Source: Alphaproteobacteria bacterium
Lineage (GTDB): Bacteria > Pseudomonadota > Alphaproteobacteria > JAAXGF01
Direction: 5' to 3'
Assembly: GCA_963555825.3 (NCBI GenBank)
Contig: CAUVXB020000001.1
Coordinates: forward strand, 480,001-544,000
Length of the DNA stretch: 64,000 bases
A program made the position numbers and the translations under genes. The notes under the pieces were generated by a model. That model did no database searches. It was not told the DNA's origin and was given only the letters and a program-made list of their open reading frames with translations. The stretch's first letter is position 1, and every line of letters starts with the position of its first letter. Positions 19,827 to 26,241 of this stretch are shown here, one piece after another.

Positions 19827-21510
19827 CAGACTGTGTAAGAACGTTTGCTGCGTGATCTGTACGGCGCGTCTTTGGCTTCGATGATCCGTCGCGGCGGGTA
19901 TTCCGGGATTAAGGATTTTCGCCACTCGTGCGGACCTGTCGGCCGGCTGGCGCCGGTGTGAGCTGCGATTTGGCCGGATATGGGCGCAATTTGCGGCGCA
20001 GAGAGGCCTATGCGGTCCTCATCGCCGCGATCAGCGGGTCGATGCCCGTGATGTTCATGACGCGCTTGAGATTGTAGGCCAGCACGTGCAGGGCCATCTC
20101 GGTCCTCACCCGTTTCAGCGTCTTCGTCTGGAAATGCGTCGCGCCCATCCAGGACTTGATGGTGCCGAAGGGATGCTCGGCCGTCTCGCGCCGCCGACGC
20201 ATCGCCTCCGGGTGCTCGTCGAGCCGCCTCTCGACGGCCTCGAGAACATGCTCGTGCTGCCAGCGGGTGATGCGGCGCTGCTTGGCCGTGGTGCAGCGAT
20301 GCTTGATGGCGCATCCCTGACAGGCGTTGGTCCAGTAGCGCCGCATGCTCAGCCCCCTCTCCTGGCTGGTGAAGCGGTAGACCAAACGCTCGCCGGCCGG
20401 GCAGCGATAGACATCGTCGGCGGCCAGATAGACGAAGTCCTGTTTGCCGAAGCGGCCCTTGGCCTTGGCTCCAGAGGTCAGCGGCTTAGGCAATGTGACG
20501 GTGATGCCGGCCTCATCGCAGGCCAGAATCTCCTTGCCGTTGTAGTAGCCGCGATCGGCAACGACATCCAACTCGTCGGTCTCCAGAGCCGCCTTGGTCC
20601 GCTTCGCCATGGCTGAGAGCTGGGCGCGGTCGGTGCCCTGATTGGTCACCTCGTGGGCGACGATCAGGTGGTGCTTGGTGTCGACGGCGGCCTGAACGTT
20701 GTAGCCGACCACGCCGGAACCCCGGCCGCTCGTCGCCATCGAGCGGGCATCGGGATCGCTCAGAGAGATCTGCTGGTCCGGGCTCGCACGCCGCTCGACT
20801 TCAAGCGCCTTCAGGCGCCGCATCTCCTGCTTGAGGATCGCGATCTTGTCGGCCAGACGAGTCGTCTTGGTCGTGCGCGCCAGCGACGGCTCTTGCCGGT
20901 CGGCGCTGTCCAACTGGTCCAGATAGCGCGCAACGCTCTCCTCGATCTGCGCCACCCGCCGCGCCATCTTGGCCCGCGTGAAGTTCCTGTCCCGGCTGTT
21001 GACCGCCTTGAACTTCGAGCCATCGATCGCCACGCTCGCCTCGGCGAACAGCCCGAGTTGCCGGCACAGCGCGACGAACCGGGCGCAGACCTTGCGGATC
21101 GCACGGCCGTTGTCCTTGCGGAAGTCGGCGATCGTCTTGTGATCCGGCGCCAGCCGGCCGACCAGCCACATCACTTCCACATTGCGCCCGGCCTCCCTCT
21201 CGAGCCGACGGCTCGACTGAACCCGGTTGAGATAGCCGTAGATGTAGAGCTTCAACAAATCGCAAGGATGATAGGCCGGCCTGCCGGTCGCCAGCGGCTC
21301 GACCCGGTCGAACCCGAGGCCGCCAAGATCGAGCTCATCGACGAAGACGTCGATCGCCCGAACCGGGTTGTCGTCGCCGATCCAGTCTTCCAGGCGCTCC
21401 GGAAACAACGTGCCCTGGCTGCGATCGACACCCTCGACAAAACGCTTCATCAGACCCTCCCGCCAAAGCACGAGAGAATCATAACACCATCGACGTTTTT
21501 ACACAGGCTG
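19827..21510 (-). mobile_element. IS1182-family element
   Basis: IRs CAGACTGTGTAAGAACGT / CAGCCTGTGTAAAAACGT; 4-bp TSD AGCC. Confidence 0.9.
20008..21450 (-). CDS. IS1182-family transposase
   Basis: GRPAYHP, SSRRLE, PDHKTIADFR, IDGSK, ADRGY, EHPFGTIK. Confidence 0.95.
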   Translation of the reverse strand: MKRFVEGVDRSQGTLFPERLEDWIGDDNPVRAIDVFVDELDLGGLGFDRVEPLATGRPAYHPCDLLKLYIYGYLNRVQSSRRLEREAGRNVEVMWLVGRLAPDHKTIADFRKDNGRAIRKVCARFVALCRQLGLFAEASVAIDGSKFKAVNSRDRNFTRAKMARRVAQIEESVARYLDQLDSADRQEPSLARTTKTTRLADKIAILKQEMRRLKALEVERRASPDQQISLSDPDARSMATSGRGSGVVGYNVQAAVDTKHHLIVAHEVTNQGTDRAQLSAMAKRTKAALETDELDVVADRGYYNGKEILACDEAGITVTLPKPLTSGAKAKGRFGKQDFVYLAADDVYRCPAGERLVYRFTSQERGLSMRRYWTNACQGCAIKHRCTTAKQRRITRWQHEHVLEAVERRLDEHPEAMRRRRETAEHPFGTIKSWMGATHFQTKTLKRVRTEMALHVLAYNLKRVMNITGIDPLIAAMRTA

Positions 21511-21597
21511 AGCCAAGAGCAGACATTCCGCCCCTCTCGAAGCACATGGATTTTCGACCTCCCAGAAGATAGCCTACCGCTATAGGGGGGACTGCTA

Positions 21598-21738
21598 ATG
21601 GAACGCCGTTTGGCCGCGATCCTGTCCGCCGACGTGGTCGGGTATAGCCGGCTCATGGAGGCCGACGAGGAAGCAACGATCCGTGTACTGAGCGAATGCC
21701 GCCAGGTCATCGACGAGCTAGTCGCAAACCATCATGGC
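21598..21738 (+). pseudogene. class III adenylate/guanylate cyclase N-terminus, truncated by IS21
   Basis: MERRLAAILSADVVGYSRLMEADEEAT...HHG, followed directly by the IS21 end. Confidence 0.85.
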
Positions 21739-22147
21739 TGAGAACGGCAGAGCAATAATCCCTCACTGAAGCGGCCGGTCGATCCGGCTGCGGCGGACCA
21801 AAATGGGACCGCGTATAGCCTTCTGTCAGGGTTGCTCTGACTGGAAGGCGGGGGGGATGTATCGGGTGGAGTTGTACGCACGGGTTCGGTGGGCGTGTCA
21901 TGTCGAGGGGATGAGCACCCGCGAGGCCTCGCGGGTGTTTGGTGTAGACCGCAAGACGGTCCGTAAGATGCTGTCGTTCTCGGTGCCGCCAGGGTATCGC
22001 CGAAGCGCGCCGCCGAGGCGGCCAAAGCTGGGTCCGTTCACGGGAATCATCGATCGGATCTTGGAAGACGATCGGACCAGCCACCGCAAGCAACGGCACA
22101 CTGCGAAGCGCATCTTCGACCGCCTCCGGGACGAGTACGGTTTCACG
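21739..22147 (+). mobile_element. IS21-family left-end fragment (5' part of istA)
   Basis: TGAGAACGGCAGAGCAATAATCCC end; istA start MYRVELYARV at 21857; inverted copy of 25833-26241. Confidence 0.85.
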
Positions 22148-22338
22148 TGTCAATGGCGGAGCAAAAAGGGACCACCTCGGCGGTGTAAGAAGGGACCGCT
22201 TGGCGGCTGCGGGCTTGTCCCCGTAGTCCACGGGAGGGCCCCGCGCGCGACGCGGCGTGCCCTCAACAGGCTGACGCGGCGGCGCGCGCGGGAGGGACCT
22301 GTGGGCCCACGGGGTCAAGCGTGGGCTGGGTGGTCGGT

Positions 22339-23103
22339 TCAGTTAGCAGTCGGGGTTTGACGCCTGCGGCTCTGGTTGAGCCTGTAGCTGTCACCGTTCA
22401 TCTCGAGGATGTTGACGTGGTGGGTGAGGCGATCGAGGAGCGCGCCGGTGAGGCGCTCGGAGCCGAACACCTCGGTCCATTCGTCGAAGGGCAGATTGGT
22501 GGTGACCAGGGTCGAGCCCCGCTCGTAGCGTTGGCTGAACACCTCGAACAACAGCTCGGCGCCGGTCTTCGACAGCGGCACGAAGCCGAGTTCGTCGACG
22601 ATCAGAAGCTTGTAGGTGGCGAGCTTCTTCTGGAACCTCAGCAGCTGCTTGTCATCGCGGGCCTCGATGAGTTCGTGGACCAGCGCGGCGGCGGTGATGA
22701 AGCCGACCGAGAGGCCCTTCTGGCAGGCCGCCAGGCCGAGACCGAGGGCGATGTGGGTCTTGCCGGTCCCACTGTTGCCGAGCGCGATGAGGTTCTCGCG
22801 GCGCTCGATGTACTCGCAGCGGGCCAGCTCCAGGACCAGCGCCTTGTTGAGCGAGGGGATGACCTTGAAGTCGAAGCTGTCGAGGCTCTTGACCACGGGG
22901 AAGCGCGCCGCCTTGATGCGCCGCTCGACCATGCGGCGCTCGCGGTCGATCAGCTCGAGCTCGGCGAGTCTCAACAGGTAGCGGACGTGATCGACGCCTT
23001 CCGAGGCGCACTGCCGGGCGATCTTGTCGTACTCGCGCAGGAAGGTCGGCAGCTTCAGCGTCTTGAGGTGGTGGGCGAGCAGCACTTGCGGTGTGTCGGT
23101 CAT
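22339..23103 (-). CDS. istB: IS21 helper ATPase IstB
   Basis: Walker A GNSGTGKT, Walker B LLIVDELG, LLDRLTHH. Confidence 0.93.
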   Translation of the reverse strand: MTDTPQVLLAHHLKTLKLPTFLREYDKIARQCASEGVDHVRYLLRLAELELIDRERRMVERRIKAARFPVVKSLDSFDFKVIPSLNKALVLELARCEYIERRENLIALGNSGTGKTHIALGLGLAACQKGLSVGFITAAALVHELIEARDDKQLLRFQKKLATYKLLIVDELGFVPLSKTGAELLFEVFSQRYERGSTLVTTNLPFDEWTEVFGSERLTGALLDRLTHHVNILEMNGDSYRLNQSRRRQTPTAN

Positions 23104-23859
23104 GCGCCGAGCCCCGACAGCAGGCTCATGTACGACTTGGCGGACGTCATCGCGACCCGGGCGCGCGGCAGATACGGATAGACGTCGAGGTTGAGCCTGG
23201 GCGGCCGCCGCTCGATGCGGCACAGTACCAGGTGCTTCACCGCATCAAAGCCGATTGCGCCGAGCCGCAGGGCGTCGCCGACCGCACCCTCGACCTCCTC
23301 GAGCCGGAAGGTCTCCAGTAGACGGAGCACCTGGACGTACTCGCGCTTGCCTGCCTTGCCCATACGAGCTTCGAGGAGCCGCCGCAGAGTGATGAAGGCC
23401 TCGGGCAGGTCCCAGCCCGCCAATGGCGCGGCCTGGTCGAGGGCGCCGATCTTCTGCTCGATCAAGGGCAGGTAATGCAGCGGGTCGAAGATCAGGTCCT
23501 CGCTGTCGTAGGACCGGCGGTGCCGGGCGATCACCTCGGCCCCGCAGCTGATCACCACCTCATCGACGTAGCCCCGGATGAGCACCTCACGGTGGCCGTA
23601 GGCCACGGGCACGGAATAGTCGTTGCTGCGGTAACGCACCAGCGACAGCGAACTCGCCCGTCCAGGGCGCTTATCGCAGGCATCATAGGGAGCAGGCGGC
23701 AATGGCAAGAGAACTTGACGATCCCGCTCGAGACGCTCGCCGATGGTCTCCTTATATGAGGCGTTTGCTGTCAAGGTGGATTTAATCTACGCCACATGAT
23801 CGTCTCTTCCATTGGTTATGGCTTTGTATCCAGGGCGGGTCTTGCGATGAGTTCCGTGT

Positions 23860-24010
23860 TTCGTGCGAGTGATCGCATCACCTTATATCCGGCAGCTCCG
23901 ATCCGGCTTGCCACAATGCTGTATACATGGACCATCACAGGACGGGGATGGGACTAATCTTGTGGACGGCACCTTCGCCAAGGAGACATGCAGTCACACA
24001 TCCAACCTGC
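23860..24010 (-). ncRNA. putative bridge RNA / seekRNA (boundaries approximate)
   Basis: Guides GTCTCCTTG (23979-23987) and CCACAAG (23959-23965) match the target GGTCTCCTTGTGGC. ACAGCAT (23916-23922) and ATATAAG (23882-23888) match the circle junction ATAGCATCTTATAT. Confidence 0.75.
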
Positions 24011-24068
24011 CAACAAGCGTTCCCATCGGGGAATGAAGCCCGTTAGAACGCTGAGCTGATCCGCAGTC

Positions 24069-25202
24069 CTATTTGACGACAGCACCCACCGGGATCAGCC
24101 CGGTTTCCAGATACCGCCAAAGCGCGATCGCCAGTTTGCGGGCCAGGGCGACGATCATGACGCGCCTGATGCGCCCCTTCTGACCTTGGGTGCGGTCATG
24201 GAACCACTGGGTCAGAGCGCTATCGGGTTGATGGCGGACCCAAAGCCATGCGGCTTCGATCATGGCAACCCGTGCCAGCCGATTGCCCGCCTTGGAGATG
24301 CCTTGGCTGCGGCGCCCGTCGCCGCTGTCATAGGCACTGGGCGTGATCCCGATATAGCTTGCCACCTGTCGGCGATTGGCGAACTGGCGATAATAGACTT
24401 CCCGTGCGAGCGTCGTGGATAAGGCCGGGCCGAGGCCCTTTAAGCGCAGCAGCTGGTGACGCTTGCTTTCCGTGGCCACACACGGTGTCGGCGCTTGATC
24501 ACGCTCACGCTCGACCTCGACGATCTGCGCTTGGACCTGGGCCAGTCTCGCGATCTCCCGCGCGATCTCGCGGCCGAGACGGTCCGGCAGGGGTCGGCCG
24601 TCTCCGGTGACCAGCGCCGCCGGTGTCAAGGTCTTGTAGCGCGCCTTGACATTGATGCCGCGAATGCCCTGACCGAATAGCAGACCCTTGATCCGGTTGA
24701 TGTGGGCGGTTCGCTCGCGGACCAATCGGTCACGTTCCCGATGAGAGCGGCGAAGGTCCTCCTCCGCGACGCTCGGAATCACCACCATGGAGCAGACATG
24801 ACGCTCGCCGCGGCACCAGGCGATCAGCGTATGAAGAATATTCTCGACATCGATGCGGTCGGTCTTCACCCGCCGCGCCCGGCGGTTGACCCGCAAGCTG
24901 GCCGGCTCCATGACCAGACACTCGATGCCGCGCTGCTCGAGGAACCGCGCCAACCAGAAGCCGTCGTAGCCGGCCTCGTAGCACAGCGTTATCGTCGGCG
25001 TTCGACCCGTCACCTTGACCACCCGGTCCCGCGCCGCGTCCAGCTTGGCCATCAGTCCTTCAGCGTCGCCGCCCTTGATCGGATGCAAGCTCGGATTGCC
25101 CCGCCCCGGAGCCTGGATCGCCAAAAGCCAGCTGTTCTTGCTCAACTCCAGTGCCGCATAAATAGCGTGTTCATTGGAGGTCGATACCGGAAACTGTGCC
25201 AT
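24069..25202 (-). CDS. IS110-family recombinase/transposase
   Basis: RuvC-like E-E-D-D (ALELSK, CYEAG, KTDRID); SAYDSG..ISKAGN; ALARKL. Confidence 0.93.
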   Translation of the reverse strand: MAQFPVSTSNEHAIYAALELSKNSWLLAIQAPGRGNPSLHPIKGGDAEGLMAKLDAARDRVVKVTGRTPTITLCYEAGYDGFWLARFLEQRGIECLVMEPASLRVNRRARRVKTDRIDVENILHTLIAWCRGERHVCSMVVIPSVAEEDLRRSHRERDRLVRERTAHINRIKGLLFGQGIRGINVKARYKTLTPAALVTGDGRPLPDRLGREIAREIARLAQVQAQIVEVERERDQAPTPCVATESKRHQLLRLKGLGPALSTTLAREVYYRQFANRRQVASYIGITPSAYDSGDGRRSQGISKAGNRLARVAMIEAAWLWVRHQPDSALTQWFHDRTQGQKGRIRRVMIVALARKLAIALWRYLETGLIPVGAVVK

Positions 25203-26241
25203 CGTGTCGCTCCTTCTGATCGAGGTTGAAATAAGCGAAGGAGCTTGAGGCTGCGTCCTTCAGCCTCATAGCATCTTGTGGCCCCGCAGCCGCGCCGCCT
25301 GGCGCCGGCGGCACTGTTCGGCGAGAGCATCGTTGAGGGCCGCGAAGCTCTCGGCACGCGGGACGGGGACCAGGAAGTTCCGCCGGATGAAGCCGACCAG
25401 TCCCTCGACCTTGCCCTTGTCGTTGCCCTTGCCCGGCCGGCCGAACCTGTCCTCGAACAGATAGTGGGACTGAAGCTCCGTGAAGACGCGCGTTCGCTGC
25501 CGCTTCCCATCGCCCAGGATCCGGGCAACCGCCAGCTTGGTGTTGTCGTACAGGATGGATCGGGGGACGCCGCCGAAGAAGGCAAACGCCGCGTTGTGGC
25601 CATCGCAGAATGCTTCGGTCGTCTCCGCCGGATAGGCCGCAACAAAGCAACCATCACTGTGGGGAAGGTCGAAGGCAAGGAAGTGGATCTTCCGTAACGC
25701 GCCGCCGATCACCGCCATCGCTTCGCCGAAGTCCGCCTGGGCGTGACCGGGGGAATGGGAGAGTGGCACGAACACCTCACGCGACCGAAGCCCCTGCTCA
25801 CGAACGTAGTCCTTCACGATGGTGTAGCCGCCCGTGAAACCGTACTCGTCCCGGAGGCGGTCGAAGATGCGCTTCGCAGTGTGCCGTTGCTTGCGGTGGC
25901 TGGTCCGATCGTCTTCCAAGATCCGATCGATGATTCCCGTGAACGGACCCAGCTTTGGCCGCCTCGGCGGCGCGCTTCGGCGATACCCTGGCGGCACCGA
26001 GAACGACAGCATCTTACGGACCGTCTTGCGGTCTACACCAAACACCCGCGAGGCCTCGCGGGTGCTCATCCCCTCGACATGACACGCCCGCCGAACCCGT
26101 GCGTACAACTCCACCCGATACATCCCCCCCGCCTTCCAGTCAGAGCAACCCTGACAGAAGGCTATACGCGGTCCCATTTTGGTCCGCCGCAGCCGGATCG
26201 ACCGGCCGCTTCAGTGGGGGATTATTGCTCTGCCGTTCTCA

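Follow-up and report, generated by a model that had tools for sequence, protein, structure and literature searches.

Here we describe an insertion sequence (IS) in a 64,000-nucleotide stretch of an alphaproteobacterial genome (GenBank assembly GCA_963555825.3, contig CAUVXB020000001.1, positions 480,001 to 544,000), to which we refer in its entirety as the window. Positions 23754-25274 of the window very probably hold an intact element of the IS110 family, with the layout of the IS1111 type, which interrupts the istA transposase gene of an IS21-family element and encodes on its own gene strand a bridge RNA of approximately 180 nt. This reading is carried by short words in the predicted RNA that match both the target and the ends of the element, by the variation of these words in step with flanking and terminal DNA among relatives, and by an RNA fold that is kept through compensatory changes.

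An IS1111-type element within istA

The element proper comprises 1521 bp on the minus strand. Its edges were defined by comparing empty and occupied sites and by contigs assembled from the RNA libraries of four metatranscriptome runs from one study, in which position 23750 is joined to 25275 and 1524 bases are skipped. Read on the transposase strand, the left end opens at 25274 with ATGCTATGAGG and the right end closes at 23754 with ..GCCTCATAT. Each end adjoins a CTT repeat (AAG on the element strand), located at 25275-25277 on the left and at 23751-23753 on the right, the latter containing the presumed core AG (CT on the plus strand). A coordinate check of the plus strand gives GGTCTC-CTT-ATATGAGG at 23745-23761 and CTCATAGCAT-CTT-GTGGCC at 25265-25283. 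A first-pass annotation of this DNA had placed an IS110/IS1111-type element at 23751-25277 inside istA; these coordinates represent the element together with both CTT repeats, and the boundaries, flanks and empty sites found here agree with that placement.

The sole long open reading frame (ORF) within the element (24069-25202, minus strand) encodes a transposase, or bridge recombinase, of 377 aa. Upstream of the gene lies a short left non-coding end of 72 nt (25203-25274), and 3' of it a right non-coding end of 315 nt. Subterminal inverted repeats of 8 bp, TATGAGGC on the left (25263-25270) and GCCTCATA on the right (23755-23762), pair with each other 4 nt and 1 nt inside the respective tips of the element.

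The target gene runs in the same direction as the element and is split into an N-terminal part (25275-26177, minus strand; ORF 25266-26177), with a weak Pfam match to rve of 29.3 bits that falls under the cut-off of 32.6, and a C-terminal part (23100-23753, minus strand; ORF 23100-23774), which matches PF22483 (5.9e-22). It is followed by istB (22339-23223; IstB_IS21, 9.1e-71). In empty copies the two istA halves are contiguous: the 25-mer to the left of the insertion point occurs 77 times in the genome, followed in 68 cases by CAAGGAGACCATCGGC, representing uninterrupted istA, and in nine cases by CAAG and the left end of the element (69 empty and nine occupied, of 78, when the 25-mer is moved by one base). 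Because the uninterrupted copies carry CAAGGAGACCATCGGC at the insertion point, the empty site reads GCCAC-AAG-GAGACC on the transposase-sense strand, and the target sequence of the window element is GCCACAAGGAGACC. The empty site previously proposed from the sequence, GGTCTC-CTT-GTGGC on the other strand, is thus real. The IS21-family element that serves as target (window 22339-26177) is present in approximately 77-78 near-identical copies, which is an unusually heavy load of one IS for a 6.04-Mb genome.

Guide words for target and donor in the predicted RNA

The predicted bridge RNA, or long seekRNA, occupies 23828-24010 on the minus strand, where it matches our covariance model of the family (described below) with 196.3 bits and an E-value of 3.4e-48. 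Its two modules, a target-binding stem-loop and a donor-binding multi-loop, are bounded by helix P0 (24005-24010 with 23835-23840), which closes the RNA. The target-binding loop (23946-24003) is closed by the stem P1+P2 (23992-24003 with 23946-23955; GGATG-TGT-GACT with AGTC-C-CATCC) and presents, in 5' to 3' order, the 5' target guide GTCTCCTTG (23979-23987), the hairpin P3 GGCGAAGGTGCC (23968-23979) and the 3' target guide CCACAAG (23959-23965), such that the two guides form opposite sides of an internal loop closed by the stem. On the 5' side, GUCUCCUUG would pair with CAAGGAGAC, its complement in the right half-site and core on the transposase-sense strand. CCACAAG, on the 3' side, is identical to the transposase-sense strand of the left half-site and core and hence complementary to the opposite strand, to which it is predicted to bind. 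Both guides cover the AAG repeat.

The donor-binding multi-loop (23843-23939) is closed by helix D1 (23926-23939 with 23843-23858) and contains the 5' donor word ACAGCAT (23916-23922), the hairpin D2 with its GGCA..TGCC stem (GGCAAGCC..GCTGCC, 23891-23912), the 3' donor guide ATATAAG (23882-23888) and the small hairpin D3 (23865-23876). ATATAAG corresponds to the final bases of the right end followed by AG, so that in the RNA AUAUAAG would pair with the strand opposite the last right-end bases and the core. AGCAT, the pairing part of the 5' donor word, is complementary to ATGCT, the first five bases of the left end, and AGCAU would accordingly contact those five bases; pairing on this side is limited to 5 nt by the C of ACAGCAT, which is mismatched with ATAGCAT.

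Chance is a poor explanation for the target words: of 40,000 random sequences drawn from a first-order Markov model, with length and composition kept, none contained both words in order and within 60 nt, while the 8-mer and the 7-mer occurred singly in 80 and 837 sequences, respectively. The first-pass annotation had described these target words, the intervening hairpin and an enclosing stem at 23947-23955/23992-24002, and all are present at those coordinates. Its donor loop, consisting of ACAGCAT, a GGCA..TGCC stem and ATATAAG, is likewise present, with the amendment that ACAGCAT pairs through AGCAT only.

Target guides follow flanking DNA among relatives

A scan of one genome per species yielded 409 encoded relatives, from which the best 80 loci (47-89% identity) were used, and the regions 3' of the stop codon and 5' of the start codon were aligned. 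Among these relatives the RNA scaffold is conserved and the two target words vary in step with the DNA outside the element. For example, the window pairs guide GTCTCCTT with right flank AAGGAGAC, relatives L022, L025, L028 and L032 pair guide GTCCGCTT with flank AAGCGGAC, and L024 pairs guide GGTAGCTT with flank AAGCTGCC through one G.U pair. Similarly, the 3' words equal the left flank in each of CCAAAAG (L025), GGTAGAG (L026), GGTAAAG (L028), CCCAAAG (L031) and CAGAAAAG (L033). Other subgroups show further combinations of guide and flank: CGAAACCC with GGGTTTCG, ATACGATT with AATCGT, CTCGAC with GTCGAG, and GAGAACCC with GGGTTCTC.

For 11 representatives with different targets, the longest exact words shared by cognate guides and flanks sum to 151, compared with a mean of 89.0 (sd 8.1) when guides and flanks are permuted, and none of 100,000 permutations attained the observed value. 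The weakest rows of this matrix are those of L024, which scores the same with its cognate partner as with the best non-cognate one, and L035, in which the right flank mismatches the presumed guide. The matching words lie at fixed distances from the donor hairpin, the order of the two target guides is the same in all relatives compared, and guide words change with the flanks although the protein stays 83-89% identical. Across seven pairs of the window and a relative, sequence differences are modestly enriched at the 15 guide positions (p between 0.0012 and 0.46). The proposal that the non-coding end carries guides matching target and donor, as in bridge RNAs and seekRNAs, is backed by this covariation of guides with flanks, and by that of guides with element ends described below.

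Several of these loci have features of their own. Locus L036 contains two tandem target-binding loops (L036:2350-2441 and L036:2485-2666) before just one donor module. In the first loop the 3' guide, CCGTGGAG, matches the left flank of that copy, TCGTGGAG; the second loop resembles that of L039 (CCCGGAG). This arrangement may represent a natural dual-target RNA or an intermediate in retargeting. The target of the closest relatives (L022, L023, L025 and L032) is inverted-repeat-like, with GTCCGCTT.. in the left flank and ..AAGCGGAC in the right approximately 20 nt apart. Since these flanks resemble an inverted repeat, the ancestral target may have been a hairpin-forming repeat, in which case the window element may have shifted to a non-palindromic site via a few guide changes. 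Two RNA relatives that have diverged and carry different guide words are also encoded in the window genome itself, L150 (G000:C2:2829430-2829631) and L151 (G000:C1:1793931-1794129); the 3' donor word of the latter, CATAAGAG, recurs downstream at a right-end-like terminus, CCCTCATAAGAG.

Donor guides and the presumed core

Donor words and element ends are both invariant among the closer relatives, which are for that reason uninformative on donor pairing. In more distant groups four versions of the 3' donor word occur (ATATAAG, ATATGAG, ATACGAG and ATGTGAG), and the word recurs as the right-end terminus of the same locus (..CTCATATAAG, ..CCCCATATGAG, ..CCTCATACGAG, ..CCTCATGTGAG) in 36 of 42 distinct rows; the misses include AAA-for-AAG junctions and contig ends. 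Element boundaries obtained by comparing copies within genomes agree with these termini. Left ends were located by pattern search and by the same within-genome comparison, a search via the subterminal repeat word having failed at most loci. Here too the 5' donor word tracks the end of the element, with AGCAT accompanying ATGCT, AGGAT or GGGAT accompanying ATCCT, and GGAAT accompanying ATTCC (L062). Taken together, a donor-guide role for these words is well supported at the right end and moderately supported at the left.

The left junction of the relatives reads TAG, GAG or AAG. As AG alone is constant (CT on the other strand), the core is probably AG, and the adjoining A would be a coincidence of the window's target. 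In one subgroup, L043-L057 (e.g. L049:1080-2740), most independent copies have AAG at the left junction and AAA at the right, which indicates that the third junction position goes with the left end on one side and with the right flank on the other. This pattern hints at the site of strand exchange.

Compensatory changes in a conserved RNA fold

Minimum-energy folds of single relatives (e.g. L025, L028, L029, L043 and L049) converge on one architecture of two modules. A hairpin immediately after the stop codon is followed by a terminal helix (GCGGGT with ACCCGC), by a target stem-loop in which two stacked helices lead to the guide-bearing internal loop and a distal hairpin, and by a donor module whose long closing helix opens into a junction with the donor words, an invariant hairpin and another, small hairpin. 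We wrote this structure onto an alignment of 11 sequences to build a covariance model, R1 (184 positions, 42 pairs). Searched against the window and the 80 loci (81 sources, 304,075 bases), R1 returned 75 matches at E <= 0.01, nearly all of them full length, just 3' of the transposase stop codon and on the same strand, and reaching relatives at 47% protein identity. The window contains one match, on the minus strand, and the whole window genome 15.

In the R1 alignment of 56 distinct rows, 88.8% of cells form standard pairs, compared with 35.5-40.2% when partners are slid by one to three columns. Changes on both sides are seen in 35 of the 42 pairs, and none of 500 shuffles attained any of the five measures used. 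RNA folding with covariation across homologues, which the first-pass annotation had put forward as a check, thus favours the proposed RNA. Compensatory changes in P1 and P2 are already visible to RNAalifold in a plain MAFFT alignment, and among 11 close relatives it recovered P0, P1, P2, P3, D2 and D3, missing D1; applied to the MAFFT alignment of all 25 sequences it was limited to the invariant hairpins, because one subgroup is misaligned. A simple scan for covarying helices was dominated by fortuitous ones rich in G and U. Rfam 15 has no match at E <= 1 over 23000-26000, and hence no curated family covers the window RNA.

Two loci, L052 (3283-3472, minus strand) and L046 (2954-3139, minus strand), have second and weaker matches to the model on the opposite strand near the main element, which suggests neighbouring or nested elements of the same family. 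Among the 11 full copies in the window genome, one at a non-istA site (L137, G000:C2:3498359-3498541) has a single C-to-T change (CACGGA to CATGGA) that restores an A-U pair in helix D1b.

A recombinase with glutamate at the first catalytic position

The protein matches PF02371 (1.6e-16) and PF01548 (1.1e-09, leaving the N-terminal 60 residues uncovered), both above their cut-offs, and the NCBIfam model NF033542, 'IS110 family RNA-guided transposase', with 204.4 bits against a cut-off of 140 (residues 15-368 on profile positions 1-341 of 343). At least 7,997 database proteins match the window protein at E <= 1e-5. Its acidic tetrad, E19, E76, D115 and D118, aligns to the D, E, D and D of IS4321, IS5708 and ISPsy16, and these four residues, together with S293-G294, are invariant in 10 diverse relatives. 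Because ALELSK aligns with GIDLGK, both with MAFFT and with hhalign, Glu19 replaces the first Asp of DEDD, and the literal first 'D' is in consequence absent.

The substitution had been pointed out in the first-pass annotation, and the alignments extend it to the subfamily as a whole: Glu19 is present in all 120 close homologues among the matches listed and, by pattern, in 55 of 67 ORFs, the remaining 12 being off-pattern with none showing Asp. In the C-terminal motif the window protein has G-I-T-P-SAYD-S-G, where most relatives have G-L-x-P; compared with the IS1111 motif GL-P----S(t)G, the looser IS110 motif G--P----SG fits the window equally well. A literature search found no description of an 'EEDD' variant of the IS110 family, which is not proof that there is none.

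We consider it possible, if rather doubtful, that the relatives constitute a distinct and large lineage of bridge recombinases, of approximately 375-390 aa, with an insertion of about 15 residues, an invariant first Glu ('EEDD') and an RNA scaffold of their own. In such a lineage core usage may differ from that of IS621. There is a 4-nt overlap between the two target guides, and in one subgroup the third position of the junction repeat always derives from the donor at the left and from the target at the right.

Copies in the genome and the occupation of istA

The window genome (6.04 Mb in two contigs, 65.3% G+C, with the window at C1:480001-544000) contains 11 full-length copies of the element that are 100% identical, besides two truncated ones and some fragments; exact 20-mers of the left and right ends occur 14 and 12 times, respectively. 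The full copies occupy six kinds of site, which argues for recent movement. Each of the five kinds of non-istA site reads yyAyAAG at the left, and the four that keep the right end read AAGGAGAC on that side, (AAG)GAGAC. In three of them (GAGACAT..) the match to the RNA is lengthened to 10 nt.

The abundance of occupied istA genes has a less probable, though serious, explanation in which istA is not a favoured target at all and a single insertion was multiplied passively by trans-mobilisation of IS21, so that the nine copies would represent one event. Such mobilisation is plausible because the IS21 copies are near-identical and very numerous, and it would suit both the nine occupied sites, which are identical in site and orientation, and the right half of istA, which matches the RNA over 8 nt, shorter than at the three sites just mentioned. 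The left guide, however, matches istA at seven of seven positions and has one mismatch in that word at four of the five other sites, and the 68 further identical targets make repeated RNA-guided insertion an equally simple account. The IS21 sequences themselves are uninformative on the route of spread, since no sequence differences separate occupied from empty copies. RNA-guided insertion, which we prefer, does not require the nine copies to be independent, and they may derive from fewer than nine insertion events.

Two partial copies of the element lie in istA sites. In L148 (G000:C1:1251381-1251557) the RNA region is reduced to a 3' fragment that starts within the target-binding loop and still adjoins the normal right flank, and in L149 (G000:C2:1500099-1500265) the RNA region has internal deletions. 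Beyond istB, the window contains the 5' portion of a further, oppositely oriented istA copy (21803-22360, plus strand) and a gene for a 487-aa DDE transposase with DUF772 and DDE_Tnp_1_6 domains (20008-21471, minus strand). As these adjoin istB (20008-22360), the element sits among clustered, nested insertion sequences.

Proposed mechanism and alternative explanations

By analogy with IS621, ISEc11 and ISEc21, the element would be excised as a circle in which right end, core and left end are joined. The RNA-bound recombinase would bring the circle junction to the target GCCAC-AAG-GAGACC, and strand exchange at the AG/CT core would leave the element in one fixed orientation. Transcription and processing of the RNA, its binding by the protein, the formation of the circle and the chemistry are steps that we infer from what has been published on these elements. 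IS110-family elements, e.g. ISEc11, ISEc21 and IS621, are described as having a promoter that forms only in the circle (PMC11187229 and PMC11208160, of each of which we draw on parts here and below). In the window element TTGACA on the minus strand (23769-23774), 15 nt from the right end and kept in close relatives, is a possible -35 box of such a promoter, to be completed by the left end upon circle joining. Read-through from istA, which has the same direction, is another possible source of the transcript.

A number of observations weigh against this interpretation. Production of the RNA, its two ends and its binding by the protein stand on inference, and the expression data consist of the assembled contigs introduced above, which are blind to strand, ends and level and may include DNA. 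Pairing at the donor left end extends over 5 nt, which is short; several groups have GGAAT or GGCAT facing ATACC, with four of five positions paired and a central mismatch, and in L098 and L100 the 5' donor word has no match to the left end. The pair counts obtained with R1 lean towards the proposed structure, because the alignment was fitted to the model. Taken alone, the window RNA folds differently from the architecture of its relatives, its helices P0 and D1b contain A.C mismatches that are absent in the relatives, and the whole right non-coding end of the element, taken as one sequence of 313 nt, folds no better than shuffled sequences (z = +0.79). A promoter scan of the integrated element found no scoring promoter-like site, its one terminator-like hairpin, on the plus strand and spanning the left junction, being regarded as chance. 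Finally, 68 perfect istA targets are unoccupied.

In all four runs, contig depth is lower over the 5' two-thirds of the gene than over its 3' part and the non-coding end, a depth that is not a measure of expression. The circle junction given in the first-pass annotation, ATAGCAT-CTT-ATATGAG, follows from joining the two ends of the element; no such joint was seen in the contigs of these runs, in which DNA may be present, and we draw no inference from its absence.

Part of this evidence would also suit an element that has the bridge-RNA architecture and is crippled or near-silent in the window genome, its copies being relics of a past burst. We judge this unlikely. Candidate causes would be Glu19 in place of the first catalytic Asp, mismatched positions in two helices of the RNA, or the want of a promoter when integrated, and it could draw on the 68 empty targets among 77, on the A.C mismatches in P0 and D1b, on the result of the promoter scan and on the missing circle junction. 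The 11 identical full copies over six kinds of site argue instead for recent movement. Glu19, moreover, is not a private defect, since it is invariant in all relatives examined, many of which are multi-copy in their own genomes, and a promoter confined to the circle is what the cited accounts of the family report. That the protein itself picks the target, with the 3' non-coding region serving as a 3' untranslated or regulatory region and the words being captured remnants of targets and ends, is highly improbable given that guide words change with the flanks among proteins of 83-89% identity, that their positions are fixed within a fold which compensatory changes preserve, and that both target strands are represented as in published systems.

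Relationship to known bridge-RNA and seekRNA systems

The architecture of the window element is that of the published bridge RNAs and seekRNAs in the IS1111-type layout, and its mechanism is as such already known; domains, guides, fold and guide order all agree with the first-pass annotation in this respect. Bridge RNAs have been predicted in 93% of IS1111-group elements (PMC11208160), and seekRNAs of 70-100 nt and 145-170 nt have been demonstrated experimentally (PMC11187229), the longer class being similar in length to the approximately 180 nt predicted here. Like the window element, the IS1111-group elements ISEc11, ISPa11, ISKpn4 and ISPst6 have a long non-coding region downstream of the gene and subterminal inverted repeats (PMC11187229); at 8 bp, the repeats of the window element fall at the short end of the 7-17 bp range given for the group (PMC11208160). 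In IS1111-type RNAs the top-strand match lies 5' of the bottom-strand match (PMC11187229), which is the order seen here, GUCUCCUUG, which pairs with the transposase-sense strand, preceding CCACAAG. The seekRNA elements of this group and the window element also share matches that overlap in the target and relatives that have been naturally re-targeted (PMC11187229).

Differences from these elements are seen in the protein and the target. IS1111 transposases are described as having 330-350 aa, as a description and not a strict criterion (PMC11187229), whereas the window protein has 377 aa and its relatives are of similar length. Compared with the ISEc11 type, the window element has Glu for the first Asp and an IS21 istA target, and is known here from its sequence; candidate donor-end guides are present in the window element, whereas the parts of the ISEc11-type paper on which we draw describe none (PMC11187229). 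IS4321/IS5075, IS1111-group elements annotated on plasmids, are approximately 24% identical to the window protein. A full-length hhalign comparison with IS4321 (98.2% probability, E 2.7e-14, 323 columns) brings the catalytic positions and the S/T-G into line, IS4321 having Asp first and Thr-Gly where the window family has Glu first and Ser-Gly, together with an insertion of approximately 15 residues after the first strand. The IS1111 assignment is supported by architecture, namely the 3' non-coding region, the subterminal repeats and the guide order, as distinct from a tree, and all architectural features fit this type except protein length and the distance from named members. Indirect evidence on the placement of the transposase comes from its homology, which extends over the full length with IS4321 and reaches significance with IS621 and ISCro4 in the C-terminal half only.

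The systems of IS621 and ISCro4 resemble that of the window in having two RNA modules, each with one guide per strand and with the core overlapped, a CT core on one strand, and a protein with a RuvC-like domain and a conserved-Ser domain (PMC11208160). The C-terminal half of the window-family profile aligns to the IS621 and ISCro4 proteins (PDB 8wt6 and 9t56; E 6e-16 and 9e-14) with the S-G aligned; between the N-terminal domains, which are too diverged, there was no significant sequence match. In IS621 and ISCro4 the RNA lies in the left end, whereas in the window element it lies in the right end with reversed guide order, and the donor nucleotides are placed in a multi-loop, as noted for many IS1111 orthologues and unlike IS621 (PMC11208160). 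ISEc21, of the IS110 group, likewise targets a site inside the transposase gene of another IS family, at DDE codons of IS3-family elements, which means that the targeting of another IS gene is already known; its non-coding region is upstream and its guide order opposite, in contrast to the downstream region and IS21 target described here (PMC11187229). No title or abstract among the literature matches listed concerned a bridge RNA with an istA target. The novelties are therefore modest, consisting of the Glu19 lineage and the istA target.

Implications

No new mechanism is revealed by this element, whose protein is already named an RNA-guided transposase by NF033542. It is a candidate programmable recombinase, as judged from its sequence, and it permits a test of whether Glu serves at the first catalytic position. 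The window genome brings together empty (68), occupied and off-consensus targets as a natural example of RNA-guided recombination, and dozens of relatives exhibit natural re-targeting through changes of the guide words alone. Because the genome supplies these kinds of target and the relatives show re-targeting, the element is well suited to working out the guide rules of the IS1111 layout, which has been less studied than that of IS621, including how long the four guides are, how far mismatches and G.U pairs are tolerated, and what part the core plays. Should the possible distinct lineage prove active, it would provide a third scaffold for programmable recombination beside those of the IS621 and ISEc11 types.

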